Below are positions 942 to 6,078 of a DNA stretch of 6,078 bases, piece after piece. This DNA comes from a virus. Every line of letters starts with the position of its first letter. The stretch's first letter is position 1. A program made the translations under genes and the position numbers. The notes below the pieces were generated by a model. That model searched no databases. It was not told the origin of the DNA and was given only the letters and a program-made list of their open reading frames with translations. Location of the stretch: IMG/VR virus record IMGVR_UViG_3300045988_049949; one strand, given 5' to 3'.

Positions 942-1175
942 ATGGAATACAATTTTAAAGACGCTTTCATAGTAAGAGCAACGAATGAAGAAAATAACGA
1001 TTTCATAATCACTCTTGGGGACAAGATAGCAACACCATATCACTTCCCAAGTCGGAAAGAAGCGGAAAAAGCGGTAATGAAAAAAGATTGGAACCTAATT
1101 GCAACATTAGCAATATCAATCGCGGAAAATACAATCAAAAATTACATAAGCAAAAATAAGGAGGTAGAAAAATGA
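942..1175 (+). CDS. Hypothetical protein, 77 aa
   Basis: ORF-track entry. ATG 942 comes 1 nt after the previous TAA (938-940). Its TGA (1173-1175) overlaps the VP1 ATG (1172-1174) as ATGA, which suggests translational coupling. I recognise no family. Confidence 0.55.
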   Translation: MEYNFKDAFIVRATNEENNDFIITLGDKIATPYHFPSRKEAEKAVMKKDWNLIATLAISIAENTIKNYISKNKEVEK

Positions 1176-3157
1176 TTACGAAAACAATCGGTAAAAACAC
1201 ACTCGGAGATAACGGGAAAATGAAAGTCCATATGCGGACTTACAACCGTAGTACACACAATTTATCATATATCTGGAGAAATACACAAGCAGTAGGGACA
1301 CTTGTACCATTTATGAGTATTCCTATGATGAAGGGAGATACGTTCAAAATCAAGCTACAGCCAAATGTGTTAACACATCCAACAGTTGGGCCACTATTTG
1401 GCAGTTTCAAGCAACAAAATGATATCTTCTTCTGTCCGATCAGGCTATACAATAGCTGGCTGCACAATAACAAGCTAAAAATCGGGCTCAACATGCAACA
1501 AATAAAATTACCGCAAATCGTACTAAGCGCGGAAACACCAATGAACGACCAAACGCACGAACCTAACGCACTAAACCCAAGCAGCTTACTATACTATTTA
1601 GGAATCAGGGCGATAGGACAAAATACAAAAGTAGAAGATCCAGACGCACGAAGAACATTCAATGCAGTACCATTCTTAGGATATTACGACATATTCAAAA
1701 ATTACTATGCAAACAAGCAAGAAGAAAAATTTGTAACAATAGCACACACAAATATTATTACAAAAATCATAATAAAAGAGGGTTCAGTATCAACAACGAT
1801 AACAAACCCGATGAGAATAAACGCAAGAGTACCGACCAACAACTCAACAGTTGAAATATTCGGAACACTCGATAGGGATAAAGTCGAAAACATTACCGTA
1901 AAATACTACTCAAACTACAACAAAGACAATCACATAGAACCGACAGAAATAACAACAAGACTTGCCGATATTTTCACAATAAAATCATGGACACCGGCAA
2001 ACAATTCCGTTACAGTAGCACCCAAACCAGACGCAAAAATAAACGGTTCGAACGCGATGCTCTGGAGCATGGAATACAAAGAGGGGAAAATGGTGTCACA
2101 TGATTTAGAAGATCTGGACGAAATAAGAGAAAAAATACTTGCAAAAGCAGGTAACCTAATATTCAACATCAAAGGTGAAAGGTCAGAGCCTCCGTTCTTT
2201 CAATACCTAATGACAGGAAGTCTAACAGATCCGGCAACCGGTACTGATACCATCGGCACACAATGGAAATATAACGACGAATGGGGACTCGTAACAAAAA
2301 CATACCAATCTGACTTATGTCAAAATTGGATTAACACGGAATGGATAGACGGAGAAAACGGGATAAACCAAATAAGCGCTGTTGCGGTTACGGATGGGCA
2401 ATTTACAATAGATTCGCTAAACTTAGCGCAAAAAGTATACAATATGCTAAACCGCATCGCAGTTTCGGATGGGTCGTACCGATCATGGTTAGAAACCGTA
2501 TATACTGGAGGATATACCGAACGGACAGAAACACCTATATATTGCGGAGGGTCAAGTGCGGAAATCGTATTTCAAGAGGTTATAAGCACAGCGGCAGCAG
2601 ACCAAGAGCCGTTAGGATCACTTGCCGGACGTGGTTTAGATACAAACCACAAAGGCGGCTATGTTGAAGTAAGAGCGACAGAGCCAGGCTACCTAATCGG
2701 AATCACTTCCTTAACACCAAGACTTGACTACACACAAGGGAATCAATGGGATGTCAATCTAAAAAGTATTGACGACATGCACAAACCAGCATTAGACGGA
2801 ATAGGATTCCAAGATCTAAGCGCGGAACTATTACTCGCAGATACAACAACATACGATGGAGAAGAATTCCAACAAAAATTCATCGGAAAACAGCCGGCAT
2901 GGATCAACTATATGACAAATATCAACAAGGCATACGGAAATTTCACAACAAACGAGAACTTCATGATTTTGTCAAGACAATATGAATATGACGAAAAAAC
3001 AAATGGAATAAAAGATTTAACAACATACATTGACCCAACTCTATACAACGGAATATTCGCAGACCAAAGCTTCAATGCGCAAAACTTTTGGGTACAAATT
3101 GGTGTCGAAATCGAAGCGAGACGAGTAATGAGTGCAAAAATAATTCCTAACTTATAA
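1172..3157 (+). CDS. VP1: Microviridae major capsid protein (F/VP1 family), 661 aa
   Basis: It is the largest ORF. The N-terminal pattern THNLSY..AVGTLVPFMSIPMMKGDTF...NDIFFCPIRLY parallels the phiX174 F-protein N-terminus (HDLSH..G.IGRL...PVIAGDSF...VDIFTFYVPHR, recalled from memory). A perfect Shine-Dalgarno site AAGGAGGT lies at 1158-1165, with 7 nt between GGAGG and the ATG. The gene context (VP2 and VP4 downstream) is typical. Confidence 0.92.
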   Translation: MITKTIGKNTLGDNGKMKVHMRTYNRSTHNLSYIWRNTQAVGTLVPFMSIPMMKGDTFKIKLQPNVLTHPTVGPLFGSFKQQNDIFFCPIRLYNSWLHNNKLKIGLNMQQIKLPQIVLSAETPMNDQTHEPNALNPSSLLYYLGIRAIGQNTKVEDPDARRTFNAVPFLGYYDIFKNYYANKQEEKFVTIAHTNIITKIIIKEGSVSTTITNPMRINARVPTNNSTVEIFGTLDRDKVENITVKYYSNYNKDNHIEPTEITTRLADIFTIKSWTPANNSVTVAPKPDAKINGSNAMLWSMEYKEGKMVSHDLEDLDEIREKILAKAGNLIFNIKGERSEPPFFQYLMTGSLTDPATGTDTIGTQWKYNDEWGLVTKTYQSDLCQNWINTEWIDGENGINQISAVAVTDGQFTIDSLNLAQKVYNMLNRIAVSDGSYRSWLETVYTGGYTERTETPIYCGGSSAEIVFQEVISTAAADQEPLGSLAGRGLDTNHKGGYVEVRATEPGYLIGITSLTPRLDYTQGNQWDVNLKSIDDMHKPALDGIGFQDLSAELLLADTTTYDGEEFQQKFIGKQPAWINYMTNINKAYGNFTTNENFMILSRQYEYDEKTNGIKDLTTYIDPTLYNGIFADQSFNAQNFWVQIGVEIEARRVMSAKIIPNL

Positions 3158-3516: not shown

Positions 3517-3525
3517 CCACGTGAC

Positions 3526-3560
3526 GAAAGAGTAGAGATAGTAAAATATCTCTACCTTTC
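3526..3560 (+). other. Long imperfect stem-loop in the 129-nt ORF3169-VP2 intergenic region
   Basis: GTAGAGATA (3532-3540) pairs with TATCTCTAC (3547-3555) around the loop GTAAAA. The stem extends by GAAAG (3526-3530) pairing with CTTTC (3556-3560) if A3531 is bulged, giving 14 bp in total. It starts 10 nt after the stop codon. No clear T-tract follows it. Confidence 0.6.
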
Positions 3561-3645
3561 TCGATTAGTACGCACGTAGCATTCTTTATGAACTAAATAT
3601 GTAAGAAGCTTTAGAAAAGCACGAAAATTTAAATTTACAAAAGAT

Positions 3646-4770
3646 ATGGCAGATTTTTTCAGCAACGGATACGGGAATGGACTCATAGGAGGTGCACTCG
3701 GAATGATCGGAGGGTCAATTCAATACAGACGCCAAAAAAAGCTAATGGCACAGCAATACGAATATGCCTTAGGAATGGCGCAACAAAATCAAGAATACGC
3801 TAAAGAAATGGCAGGTATCAATCAAGGATACGCTAAAGAAATGGCAGGAATTAATCAACAACATAACAAAGATATGTTTGATTATACTGGATATCAAGCA
3901 CAAGTAGCGCAAATGAAAGCGGCAGGACTTAATCCTGCCCTGATGTACGGAAGCGCAGGTGCAGGAGGAAGCACACAAGGAGGTGCAGGAATGGCAGGAA
4001 GTGCAAGTGCAGGAAGCGGATCAATGGGAGGCGCGCCAAGTGCACCAGATACCGGACTGACCAGCGGTATAGGAATGGGAATGCAATTAGGATTAATGGA
4101 AGCGCAAAAACGAAACCTTGAAGCAGATGCAGCAAAAAAGGAAGCAGACGCAAAGAAAACGGCAGGTGCAGACACAGAATACACAAGAATGCTAACCGAA
4201 CTGGCGAAAACAGAAATAGACTACAAGGCAATGAGCACAGAAGAGGTTGCAGCGAAAGTAAAGATGTGGGGTGACAAGTCGCAACTGCTGATGGCAGAAG
4301 CAAGGAAAGCGGCATCAGAGGCTGACTATAACGAAAGAACGATGGATGATAGAGTGGCAAAGGCAGGATACGAAACAGTGAACAGCATGCTCGAAAACAT
4401 ACAAAAGATGCGGAATATCGAATTCACGGAAGCACAGACAAGAGCAATCTCGGAAAATATAGCGATAGCATGGTATAACGCAGGGACAAACAGAATGAAC
4501 GCAACAACGGCAGCAGACCATGTCGCGAACGAACTCATGAAGATAACAGGAGACCTCGATATACGGGAAAGAACCTTGCTGAAGGACTGGATATACCAAG
4601 GAGTGCACGCAGGGGTGGCACTATTGGAAGGAATTACAGATGTCGTAAAAATAAAGGCCCTTATCAAGGCAGCATCAAAAGGCATCAAGGAAGTAATAAC
4701 AAGATCAGGGAAAAAAGACAAAGACGGAAACTGGACAGAAGATACAATTCGTGAACTATTTAAAGATTAA
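3646..4770 (+). CDS. VP2: Microviridae DNA pilot / minor capsid protein (H/VP2 family), 374 aa
   Basis: The N-terminus has a glycine-zipper hydrophobic segment (GLIGGALGMIGGS). This is followed by Q/A-rich periodic repeats, an AAGLNPALMYG motif that I recall as conserved in gokushovirus/alpavirus VP2, a G/A/S low-complexity linker, and a long K/E/A-rich helical region. It lies directly upstream of VP4, 4 nt from the VP4 start. Confidence 0.85.
   Translation: MADFFSNGYGNGLIGGALGMIGGSIQYRRQKKLMAQQYEYALGMAQQNQEYAKEMAGINQGYAKEMAGINQQHNKDMFDYTGYQAQVAQMKAAGLNPALMYGSAGAGGSTQGGAGMAGSASAGSGSMGGAPSAPDTGLTSGIGMGMQLGLMEAQKRNLEADAAKKEADAKKTAGADTEYTRMLTELAKTEIDYKAMSTEEVAAKVKMWGDKSQLLMAEARKAASEADYNERTMDDRVAKAGYETVNSMLENIQKMRNIEFTEAQTRAISENIAIAWYNAGTNRMNATTAADHVANELMKITGDLDIRERTLLKDWIYQGVHAGVALLEGITDVVKIKALIKAASKGIKEVITRSGKKDKDGNWTEDTIRELFKD
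3793..3858 (+). repeat. In-frame 33-nt tandem duplication inside VP2 (EYAKEMAGINQ / GYAKEMAGINQ)
   Basis: Copy 1 is 3793-3825 (gaatacgctaaagaaatggcaggtatcaatcaa). Copy 2 is 3826-3858 (ggatacgctaaagaaatggcaggaattaatcaa). They share 30 of 33 nt. The flanking LGMAQQNQ and QHNKDMFDY look like degenerate further 11-aa units. Confidence 0.9.
4120..4161 (+). repeat. In-frame 21-nt tandem repeat inside VP2 (EADAAKK / EADAKKT)
   Basis: The copies are 4120-4140 (gaagcagatgcagcaaaaaag) and 4141-4161 (gaagcagacgcaaagaaaacg). They share 16 of 21 nt and have a heptad-length period. Confidence 0.7.
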
Positions 4771-4774
4771 AATT

Positions 4775-5704
4775 ATGTGTTTATATCCAAAATTGATCAA
4801 AAATAAGAAATATACAAAAAACAAAAAGAACGGTGGGGCAATTCCTGCCGTTTCTGATAATAGAGTATTATGGGTAACAGCAGCATGCGGAAAATGCTTT
4901 GAATGTAGAAAACAAAGAGCAAGAGCGTGGCAAGTCAGAATGTCCGAAGAACTAAGGGAAAATCCAAACGCGATATTCGTAACGCTGACCATCTCAGACG
5001 AATCATTCGAATATATAATGGACAAATATCAGATAGAAACCAACGAGGAATGTTGTAAAAAAATGGTAAGGTTATTCCTCGAAAGAATAAGAAAAGAAAC
5101 GAAGAAAAGTATAAAACATTGGTTTATCACAGAAATGGGACACCAAAATACAGAAAGATATCATCTACATGGAATAATGTGGGGAATAGGAATAGACGAA
5201 ATAATAAAAAGAAATTGGAAATACGGATTTGTATTCATAGGATCATTCGTAAACGAACAAACGATCAACTACGTAGTAAAATACATGCTAAAAAAAGACA
5301 AAGATCACAAAGAATATAATCCAATAGTATTATGCAGTGCAGGAATAGGGGCAGGGTATCTAAACAGAAAAGATTCAGAACTAAATAAATTCAAAGGGAC
5401 GAACACAAACGAAACATACAGGCTAAGAAATGGAACAAAACTAAACTTACCAATATACTACCGAAACAAAATATACACAGATGATGAAAGAGAAAAGCTA
5501 TTTATACAGAAAATCGACAAGGGCGATGTATGGATATGCGGGGAAAAGGTAAAAATAGACGACCAAGAAGCCTATAAAGAATTACTCGAATATCACCAAA
5601 GGGAAAAACAAAGACTACACGGAGATAATCCACAAGAATGGGAAGTAACCAAATACCTACGCAGACTCAACAAACAACGCCAAGCACGCAAGCGCACCAA
5701 GTAA
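4775..5704 (+). CDS. VP4: Microviridae replication initiator (HUH rolling-circle endonuclease, A/VP4 family), 309 aa from ATG 4775
   Basis: RCR motif 1 is FVTLT (4976-4990). Motif 2 (HUH) is YHLHG, with His codons at 5162-5164 and 5168-5170. Motif 3 is YVVKYMLK, with Tyr codons at 5270-5272 and 5282-5284; compare phiX174 A protein YVAKYVNK. The Cys cluster CGKCFEC starts at 4886. The N-terminus MCLYP is typical of VP4 proteins. ATG 4775 sits 4 nt after the VP2 stop. The track's GTG 4751 start would overlap VP2 and add only MNYLKIKI. Confidence 0.92.
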   Translation: MCLYPKLIKNKKYTKNKKNGGAIPAVSDNRVLWVTAACGKCFECRKQRARAWQVRMSEELRENPNAIFVTLTISDESFEYIMDKYQIETNEECCKKMVRLFLERIRKETKKSIKHWFITEMGHQNTERYHLHGIMWGIGIDEIIKRNWKYGFVFIGSFVNEQTINYVVKYMLKKDKDHKEYNPIVLCSAGIGAGYLNRKDSELNKFKGTNTNETYRLRNGTKLNLPIYYRNKIYTDDEREKLFIQKIDKGDVWICGEKVKIDDQEAYKELLEYHQREKQRLHGDNPQEWEVTKYLRRLNKQRQARKRTK

Positions 5705-5706
5705 CC

Positions 5707-5741
5707 GAGGTCTCGGAGTTCTCGAGGTTCTCGAGGTTCTC
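5707..5741 (+). repeat. Iteron-like array of about four 9-nt units (GAGGTCTC, GGAGTTCTC, GAGGTTCTC, GAGGTTCTC) starting 3 nt after the VP4 stop
   Basis: Two perfect GAGGTTCTC units lie at 5724-5732 and 5733-5741, preceded by two degenerate units at 5707-5714 and 5715-5723. The unit junctions create CTCGAG palindromes at 5721-5726 and 5730-5735. A near-palindrome CCGAGGTCTCGG lies at 5705-5716. Confidence 0.8.
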
Positions 5742-5808
5742 ACCAACTCTTGGAAACGTATCGCTCTGCGCGATACTTTTACATCTCTATCCGCCTTTGG
5801 CGGCCGAC

Positions 5809-5830
5809 TTGTGGAAATATTGTGGAAATA
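5809..5830 (+). repeat. Perfect 11-nt tandem repeat, TTGTGGAAATA x2
   Basis: 5809-5819 and 5820-5830 are identical. Each unit contains TGTGGAAAT, a 7 of 9 match to the reverse complement (TGTGGATAA) of the DnaA-box consensus TTATCCACA. The period is about one helical turn. Confidence 0.85.
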
Positions 5831-5989
5831 GCCGCTTCGCGTCTTTGTCCCCGACGGCTCGGTCTCGCCCGAGTGGCGACGACCTGTCGTCAGGTCGATC
5901 ACGGAAGAGCCACGCCTACCGGCGGGTGGTCGCTCGCATACTCGCTCATGTCTCACAGCTATATAATGTTAATAAAGGTTAAACACGTA

Positions 5990-6078
5990 AATAAAAACAC
6001 GAAAGTATTGTGTAATTCAAATTAAGTTCTTATATTTGCAATATGAAAAAGAAACAAATTACAAACTAAAAAAAAAAG
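5990..6078. repeat. Terminal direct repeat, copy 2: a redundant copy of 1-89 that includes a second copy of the promoter motifs at 6007-6038
   Basis: Identical to 1-89. The window runs past the closure point of a circular contig. Confidence 0.95.

Follow-up and report, generated by a model that had tools for sequence, protein, structure and literature searches.

The viral DNA analysed here (IMG/VR record IMGVR_UViG_3300045988_049949; 6,078 nt, referred to below as the window) is one circular microvirus genome of 5,989 nt with an exact 89-nt terminal redundancy (positions 1–89 are identical to 5990–6078). Directly behind the gene for the replication initiator VP4 it carries a GC-rich intergenic island (5705–5950), and the 3′ third of this island contains an 84-nt core (5846–5929) of four tandem hairpins, P0, A, B and C. 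Judged by comparison of related sequences, the core is a functional nucleic-acid structure: compensatory changes have preserved its fold in no fewer than four widely differing microvirus lineages from vertebrate guts. We describe it as a conserved intergenic hairpin signal of single-stranded DNA (ssDNA) phages, which is swapped between clades, occurs in both orientations and is accompanied by a host repeat motif. No description of the core was found in Rfam or in the literature that was searched.

In a megablast search with the genome, the only match among 50,697 phage records was a perfect 33-nt stretch (5877–5909) in Dulem virus 252, a microvirus from the lemur gut, where it lies on the minus strand. 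A more sensitive BLAST search added Dulem virus 263 (77% identity over 5856–5947, minus strand, in unannotated intergenic DNA), and blastn of the island against the same records returned Dulem microviruses only. A member-finding pattern, CGACGA-N12-TCGANCNNGGAAGAG, was built on the constant bases of the Dulem alignments. The true members recovered with it number three in IMG/VR and thirteen among metagenome contigs, from gut samples and all on pieces of microvirus-genome size or less; the 13,212-nt contig L026 proved to be a head-to-tail dimer of a 6,453-nt microvirus genome, with the core present twice, exactly 6,453 nt apart. A covariance model (R1) was then built from twelve sequences. True members scored 54–112 bits with one match per genome, and the match in the window spans 5841–5941 on the + strand (111.7 bits). 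L011 and L016, the remaining pattern matches on long contigs, and L082 with its 17.9 bits were set aside as chance hits, since they lie in coding-like sequence and have no such hairpins. The model found no match in five relatives with 41–52% identical VP4, and no GC-rich island is present there. Searches of IMG/VR for further relatives with a Dulem-type replication initiator (Rep) and for a GGCTAAAGCC-type module pattern found none. The strict core pattern was also run on 185,579 prokaryote genomes. Neither full complementarity of stem B nor the flanking context is seen in any of the 23 hits; divergent copies could escape a pattern of this kind. A plasmid search matched neither the core nor the window island. 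The idea that the core is a CRISPR repeat or mimics a host repeat was rejected, as there were no multi-copy matches in genomes.

All four hairpins are described on the + strand of the window. P0 (TGTC / CCC / GACG; 5846–5856) was recovered by RNAalifold and by pair counts, with 98% of its cells paired and compensatory change at two of its four pairs. Hairpin A (5857–5874) has the stem CTCGG/CCGAG with a G.T closing pair, and the stem alleles among the relatives are CTCGG/CCGAG, GTCGG/CCGAC, GCCGG/CCGGC and GAACGT/ACGTTC. The trinucleotide CGA precedes hairpin B (CGACCTG / TCGT / CAGGTCG), the two together occupying 5877–5897 and B itself 5880–5897. Stem B is fully paired in 15 of 15 sequences; three of its positions covary, and five alleles occur (CCTG/CAGG, GCTA/TAGC, GCTG/CAGC, GCGG/CCGC and GCGT/ACGC). 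The junction ATCACGGAAGAG (5898–5909) leads from B to hairpin C (CCA-CGCC / TACC / GGCG-GG-TGG; 5910–5929), in which 91% of cells are paired and three pairs show compensatory change, for example CGAC/GTCG in L013. Hairpin C is optional, being replaced in Dulem virus 252 and L026 and absent from L012 and L096. Within the junction GGAAGAG is constant in all members, an invariance that is partly a matter of ascertainment, owing to the way in which members were sought. The same bases are identical in the matches in Dulem viruses 252 and 263, which were found by BLAST and not selected by pattern; L096 has the variant GGGAAAG. With ribosum scoring, RNAalifold also predicted a closing helix, TCTCCG/CGGAAGA(G), that would involve the invariant GGAAGAG and produce a three-way junction; it competes with P0, which has compensatory support.

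Over 15 distinct microvirus sequences 96.1% of the cells in the core are paired, and two-sided changes occur at 13 of 24 pairs. None of 500 shuffles reached any of the measures, and controls with slid partners lay far lower. Two-sided changes outnumber one-sided changes by 45 cells to 8, and G.U pairs are nearly confined to helix ends. RNAalifold on an independent MAFFT alignment recovered the same core hairpins. Between subgroups whose VP4 genes are 68–71% identical in the 3′ half the core is 80–87% identical, whereas the remainder of the island cannot be aligned. The core is thus more conserved than the flanking VP4 gene, and this conservation, together with the covariation in relatives, places P0 and hairpins A, B and C under selection. 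The alifold energies of the two core strands are about equal (−62.6 versus −61.7 kcal mol−1), and neither these energies nor the G.U pairs gave a clear signal as to the strand of function.

Protein coding was rejected, since members have stops in every frame and share no start codon. Of 16 members, 13 have no stop in the +2 frame (counted from CGACGA), which was rejected in turn: it has no start codon and is stopped in the Dulem virus 252 and L026 copies. Compensatory changes at the covarying stems would moreover give radical amino-acid replacements. None of the 4227 models of Rfam 15 matched the whole window, the island or six related genomes other than below threshold; the best scores in the island were 17.9 bits for c-di-GMP-II-GAG (gathering score 40) and 16.6 bits for SCARNA23. 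The c-di-GMP-II-GAG hit lies on the antisense strand of the core (window 5848–5928; also L010 4296–4376 at 15.3 bits) and is probably due to chance, because the outer long-range helix that it implies is not conserved in L003.

The core is found in two orientations relative to the genes. In the clade of the window, which includes the L003 and L010 types (VP1 61–66% identical), it follows VP4 in the sense direction. In Dulem virus 252, L026, Dulem virus 263 and L012 all genes lie on one strand and the core on the other. The capsid proteins of Dulem virus 252, L026 and L012 are at most ∼24% identical to that of the window, and comparison of VP1 with that of the window detected no similarity in Dulem virus 252, L026 or Dulem virus 263. 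Orientation is fixed within each clade and not polymorphic. Window-type and Dulem 252-type genomes have the same layout of gene stop, island, AT-rich segment with an ori-like motif and TAnnTTTG promoter, with the island inverted in Dulem virus 252. In L012 the inverted core sits between the capsid gene and the next gene, where it replaces a plain hairpin of its relatives; the inserted unit, TCTCTCC...GGAAGAG, has pyrimidine-rich and purine-rich ends that form an imperfect inverted repeat. Neither clear terminal inverted repeats nor target-site duplications flank the window island, and no inverted repeats of the kind expected around an invertible segment were found. An identical 33-mer occurs in the window, Dulem virus 252, L026 and L012 despite unrelated stems A and C, and L014 (sense) and Dulem virus 263 (antisense) have another stem-B allele in common. 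The Reps of core carriers are of two sizes, ∼310 and ∼545 residues, and about 25% identical or less. Stem alleles common to different clades indicate that the element has been exchanged, patch-wise, between very distant microviruses. The GC-rich islands themselves are mosaics of interchangeable modules, with the core at three different intergenic positions.

The sequence-only reading of this DNA had drawn attention to the island as a GC-rich, hairpin-dense, non-coding block, and its description was reproduced, all of its numbers being correct. Positions 5701–5950 contain 145 G+C in 250 nt (58.0%) against a genome mean of 38.2%, with 30% in the comparison stretch 941–1000 and 43% in 1501–1560. 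Among all 246-nt frames of the genome the GC-richest begins at 5692, and frames of that length with at least 55% GC start only within 5649–5727 (1.3% of positions). The base bias is reversed as well, from an A excess elsewhere in the genome (A 43%, T 20%) to a T excess in the island (A 16%, T 25%). The shift begins, as had been said, at the VP4 stop codon (TAA, 5702–5704), the island starting at the next base. The six arm pairs that had been named are exact reverse complements at the positions given for them, the fifth hairpin having a 2-nt bulge, and the two sets of tandem repeats are present. The non-coding assignment held, as set out above. Of the five hairpins that had been listed, the third to fifth (A, B and C here) are conserved beyond close kin, but the first and second occur in close relatives only. 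A pairing GACGA/TCGTC that had been noted as competing with stem B survives in most members but not in L014 and L002, while every member retains stem B. The condition that the sequence-only reading had set against a functional island, relatives devoid of conservation and covariation, does not hold, as the core exceeds the flanking VP4 gene in conservation and covaries strongly.

The island is a composite non-coding cassette, with a lineage-specific 5′ two-thirds in front of the conserved 3′ third. The first of its repeats, the 9-nt unit CGAGGTTCT (5706–5741, +; TRF period 9, 4.1 copies; repeat family D1), contains overlapping CTCGAG palindromes and is iteron-like; it can be aligned only in the close relatives L004, L020, L048 and L050, and a similar 24-mer in L026 was not significant by BLAST. 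Hairpin 1 is a 7-bp stem, GTATCGC/GCGATAC, followed by TTTT (5758–5780, stem 5758–5776, +), which was picked up by a terminator scan; the stem is retained in close relatives with a variable loop. Hairpin 2, a 5-bp stem CCGCC/GGCGG (5791–5803, +) with verified arms, is likewise lineage-specific, as is the 11-nt repeat TTGTGGAAATA (5809–5830, +; TRF period 11, 2.0 exact copies, 100% match; family D5). The reverse complement of the latter (TTTCCACAA, with TATTTCCACAA twice, 11 nt apart) has a loose likeness, at 7–8 of 9 positions, to the DnaA box, TTATCCACA. When the 5′ half and the tail of the island were searched by BLAST against all fetched microviruses, no match was found beyond close kin. 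ARAGORN found no transfer RNA or transfer-messenger RNA in the window.

Folding energies were compared with those of shuffled sequences. For the whole island z was −2.0 with DNA parameters, −1.9 for RNA of the + strand and −2.5 for RNA of the − strand; for the core alone it was −1.9 and −1.6. The island folds better than its shuffles, but the effect, a z of about −2, is modest, and thermodynamics alone separates the island from chance only weakly. A chimeric assembly or a contaminant had also been considered in the sequence-only reading. An independent assembly, L132, from another sample (run SRR413675) and with another start point and terminal repeat, has the identical island at the same VP4 junction, and five further contigs from other assemblies carry it at 94–98% identity, so that the island is neither an assembly chimera nor a contaminant.

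Just 3′ of the island lies the motif ATGTTAATAA (5966–5975, context 5960–5987, +), a candidate nick or origin motif for VP4 that resembles the annotated viral-strand origin of phiX174, CTTG|ATATTAATAAC. The island-less relatives L005–L008 have AAAATGTTAATAAC at the same intergenic position, and in L003 and L010 the motif comes back in the form of ATGTTAAA repeats. No phiX-ori-like nick motif was found inside 5705–5950. A GC-rich stem with a T-run directly behind it, the form of an intrinsic terminator, occurs in the island only at 5758–5776 with its TTTT, and no T-run follows core stems A, B or C. Genomes of the L003 type have a classic terminator, GCCCTGTGGGCTTTTT, at the place equivalent to hairpin 1, directly before the core. 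From its sequence hairpin 1 looks like the VP4 terminator, and with such terminator-like hairpins between VP4 and the core, in the window as in L003, the core may be poorly transcribed there.

A second module, beginning GGGCGTCCGNGCGGGCTNTCCG, stands beside the core in L010, L014, L022, L012 and L096, and thus occupies the same kind of island. It was found in 40 IMG/VR microvirus contigs, in ∼33 of them antisense to the genes, and many of the antisense contigs have the inverted island placed behind a canonical TAnnTTTG promoter and ahead of a start codon. Its match to the Rfam family Flavo-1 (RF01705), read from the opposite strand to that of the core, reaches 39.9 bits (L122; gathering score 42), and other related loci score 30.1, 26.5 and 24.8 bits. 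Loci of the Flavo-1-like module include L010 4206–4283, L122 104–163, L124 3506–3573 and L096 1434–1517, with others among L090–L128. The conserved Flavo-1 arms, GCGU.AGGGAU.G.AG.G ... AGCGGA.AGCCCG.CC, are present both in the islands of these relatives and in the published seed alignment, whose sequences the module closely resembles. They are absent from the window island, which has only loose 9-mers such as GGCGGATAG; a Flavo-1 search of both strands of 5690–5990 with a cutoff of E ≤ 10 found nothing, nor did one of the entire window. The module is ∼82% identical to copies on 77 plasmids of Bacteroides, Phocaeicola, Parabacteroides and Butyricimonas, the examined copies lying at gene 3′ ends, and Flavo-1 is multi-copy in Bacteroidota genomes. 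Flavo-1 has been a Bacteroidota motif without an assigned function since 2010 (Weinberg et al. 2010, PMC2864571); no earlier report of a phage home for this orphan motif was found. Like the core, it is a GC-rich, conserved, Bacteroidota-linked hairpin motif, and in Flavobacterium psychrophilum its copies lie sense or antisense to transcripts, many being untranscribed (PMC9723704). The two differ in form, the core having four tandem hairpins and Flavo-1 one long interrupted hairpin, and in distribution, since Flavo-1 is on bacterial plasmids and the core has neither plasmid copies nor a true copy in the scanned genomes. Antisense-clade loci of the L093 type additionally have a 13-bp perfect inverted repeat, AAACTATGTTAAA...TTTAACATAGTTT, ∼230–270 nt downstream of the start of the module on the element-sense strand, which places ATGTTAAA on both strands near promoter and island.

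We tentatively propose, as something possible rather than probable, that the core is an exchangeable, orientation-tolerant ssDNA hairpin cassette for complementary-strand priming. The cassette would act as folded single-stranded DNA. In an ssDNA genome of 38% GC it would be the one stable duplex block that single-strand-binding protein cannot melt; it adjoins the presumptive plus-strand origin motif and could be the entry point at which host priming machinery (candidates being a PriA-type structure-specific loader, a primase or RNA polymerase) starts the complementary strand. Recognition would be by structure and not by strand sequence, which would explain both the tolerance of inversion and the swapping between phages with different Reps and shared Bacteroidales hosts. 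The near-pure Watson–Crick switching, the equal folding of the two strands and the tolerance of inversion point weakly to DNA hairpins over RNA. The same stem-B allele and 33-nt string in phages with such distant capsids and different Rep sizes fit a signal read by the host rather than by the Rep. Papers on other microviruses only predict intergenic hairpins and assume a primosome role for them (PMC9865509).

The known minus-strand signals (the phiX174 n′/PriA site, G4 oric, hairpins B and C of Ff and the plasmid single-strand origins ssoA, ssoU, ssoT and ssoW) are likewise non-coding, hairpin-dense and ∼100–250 nt long, and they lie in the main intergenic region close to the plus-strand origin. 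The single-strand origins of rolling-circle plasmids are in addition hairpin-rich, host-specific, dispensable cassettes that are exchanged between replicons with unrelated Reps, in which they resemble the core. Stable, conserved hairpins in the single-stranded form are a further shared property, the core having four with compensatory changes. Several observations weigh against a priming role. To our knowledge, the known minus-strand origins (the phiX174 n′ site, G4 oric and those of Ff and the sso plasmids) work in one orientation only; the core occurs in both and has no fixed orientation on the packaged gene-sense strand, four lineages carrying it inverted. GGAAGAG and CGACGA lie on the same element strand in both orientation groups, which looks sequence-specific, if partly by ascertainment. 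The relatives with 41–52% identical VP4 that have no GC island must prime differently, the inverted core of L012 is in a transcribed spacer, and single-sequence folding is just ∼2 standard deviations better than that of shuffles. The characterized minus-strand sites also have no sequence similarity to the island (blastn, 50,697 phage records). The sequence-only reading had offered a complementary-strand origin as a natural candidate; its strand-specific form is not supported, given the antisense cores of Dulem viruses 252 and 263, L026 and L012 and the island-less relatives, and only an orientation-tolerant, accessory form survives.

A different account, which we regard as a doubtful though serious contender, makes the core a palindromic module like REP/BIME elements or MITEs, one of several that are spread among gut microviruses, and in some cases among their hosts, by recombination or by a hairpin-specific transposase, with no dedicated phage function and with its hairpins kept for mobility or persistence. 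REP/BIME elements and palindromic MITEs are similarly GC-rich imperfect palindromes at gene ends that occur in both orientations, form mosaics and show compensatory change. The patchy, accessory distribution of the core, its three intergenic positions in either orientation, the mosaic islands, the patch-wise sharing of alleles between distant clades and the replacement of a plain hairpin in L012 by a unit with the ends TCTCTCC...GGAAGAG all fit this account, as do the neighbouring Flavo-1 modules with their many genomic and plasmid copies, found in either orientation to transcripts and often untranscribed in F. psychrophilum (PMC9723704). The core differs, however, in being strictly single-copy in each phage genome, phage-only so far (no true hit to the strict pattern in the prokaryote genomes, none in plasmids) and without an associated transposase. 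REP/BIME elements are multi-copy in their genomes and are mobilized by RAYT/IS200-type enzymes. The fixed orientation within each clade and the lack of target-site duplications or clear terminal inverted repeats at the window island also speak against such a module, and a transposase acting on ssDNA would be expected to insert it in one orientation on the packaged strand. A broader reading, which is unlikely, would join the core, the Flavo-1-like module and other modules in one family of structure-conserved hairpin cassettes that move between ssDNA phages (in the case of Flavo-1 also plasmids and Bacteroidales chromosomes) and are free in orientation because a host factor, either a structure-specific primosome loader or a hairpin-specific HUH enzyme, reads the folded DNA.

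The hairpins might instead work in RNA. That the stem cluster ends or pauses transcription, or shields mRNA from exonucleases, as part of a 3′ untranslated region here and, in the inverted clades, of a 5′ leader or a spacer between cistrons, is rather unlikely. In every case the core comes straight after a stop codon or separates a promoter from a start codon, its hairpins form on either strand, and in the antisense clade the canonical TAnnTTTG upstream makes the inverted island a 5′ leader, with a 30–45-nt AT-rich spacer kept before the ATG. The phiX174 intergenic hairpins and the REP elements of Escherichia coli act as mRNA terminators or stabilizers; the former (after genes J, F, G and H) stand directly behind microvirus stop codons, as the island does, and 5758–5780 fits their class. 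The core itself is without a U-tract, follows a terminator-like hairpin in the window and in L003, and is conserved across clades beyond what a simple stem needs. Simple stabilizer stems would not need four hairpins with constant junction sequences, nor would one expect them to exceed VP4 in conservation or to pass from clade to clade; there are also hardly any G.U pairs or one-sided changes. A small non-coding RNA with transcription of its own (for instance regulatory or anti-defence), read from the element's own strand and hence antisense to the genes in Dulem-type viruses, is improbable. It would account for the constant unpaired bases on the same strand in both orientation groups and for the U.G/U-A/C-G and G.U/G-C alternations at helix ends, which fit this strand only. 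Related islands have a sharp 5′ boundary at GGG, which in the antisense clades comes after a TTTG-containing AT-rich stretch, and anti-defence cargo is typically accessory and moves horizontally. The upstream motif, TAnTTTG, is nevertheless one base short of the Bacteroides consensus and has no evident −33 element, no terminator follows the core, and the window core is preceded not by a promoter but by a terminator-like hairpin. The structured non-coding RNA raised as an option in the sequence-only reading matches no known family in Rfam, the alifold energies show no strand preference, and we know of no antisense transcription in Microviridae.

Two further suggestions from the same source fared no better. 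A plus-strand origin or Rep-binding region, at which VP4 would bind and nick hairpins and repeats, is decidedly improbable. The island does lie right after VP4 beside an AT-rich motif, and its 9-nt and 11-nt repeats, like the GCTATGCAGCGTGG repeats of L010-type genomes, are lineage-specific in the manner of Rep iterons. Since the phiX-ori-like ATGTTAATAA is outside the island and present in island-less relatives, and since the core spans phages with unrelated Reps of ∼310 and ∼545 residues, the island is probably not the VP4 origin; the inversion of the core relative to the genes in some clades adds to this. Host-derived DNA or an attachment site for lysogeny, of the Xer/dif or integrase (attP) type, is very improbable indeed. 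Some microviruses are integrated in Bacteroidota genomes, and related islands hold host-like Flavo-1 copies. The strict pattern, however, has no true copy in the 185,579 genomes, and no plasmid matches the window island. Nor was a copy found in a prophage, the exact VP4 being confined to contigs of the 5–10 kb size class (6,116 nt in one case), and stem loops of 3–6 nt are unlike recombinase core sites.

The remainder of the genome has a compact layout, with all genes on the + strand. A block of small open reading frames (94–1175) is followed by the gene for the VP1 capsid protein (1172–3157; Pfam Phage_F), a gene for a 115-residue protein between VP1 and VP2, the VP2 gene (3646–4770) and the VP4 gene (4775–5704; ATG at 4775; Pfam REP_ORF2-G2P, E 8e-13). 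VP4 was called as a 309-residue gene on an independent contig. The motif TATATTTG (6031–6038, repeated at 42–49, +), upstream of the small-gene block, fits the Bacteroides −7 promoter motif TAnnTTTG; the match was read straight from the sequence and the motif name was taken from Bacteroides promoter papers. The same motif occurs in L010, L001 and genomes of the antisense clades. Such promoters, with Flavo-1 copies in common with Bacteroides, Phocaeicola and Parabacteroides plasmids, indicate gut Bacteroidales hosts. A second intergenic region (3517–3645) contains a 9-bp hairpin, GTAGAGATA/TATCTCTAC (3532–3555), followed by CTTTCT, which is a terminator-like end for the 115-residue gene. The VP2 pilot-protein gene has imperfect 33-nt tandem repeats (3774–3876, 2.3–2.6 copies) that give an 11-residue protein repeat. 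A 66-residue open reading frame (740–940) has a lipoprotein-like N-terminus (…LGVTSC) and a weak match to DUF6486. It is the sole small open reading frame in common with distant clades, with tblastn matches in 35 fetched microvirus loci including Dulem virus 252, L026 and L012.

Origins and cis-acting signals have so far been undefined for the microviruses that dominate vertebrate gut viromes. The 84-nt element is precisely delimited and backed by covariation; together with the working covariance model and the natural variants collected here (inverted cores, cores without hairpin C and island-less relatives), it offers a ready design for probing how the second strand is started in these phages. 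The analysis also indicates that non-coding cassettes are exchanged between deeply divergent microviruses, in islands linked to Flavo-1. Should the core and the Flavo-1-like module indeed belong to one family of hairpin cassettes, this would give the orphan Flavo-1 its first function and would reveal a new class of signals, for single-strand initiation or for mobility, that do not depend on orientation.

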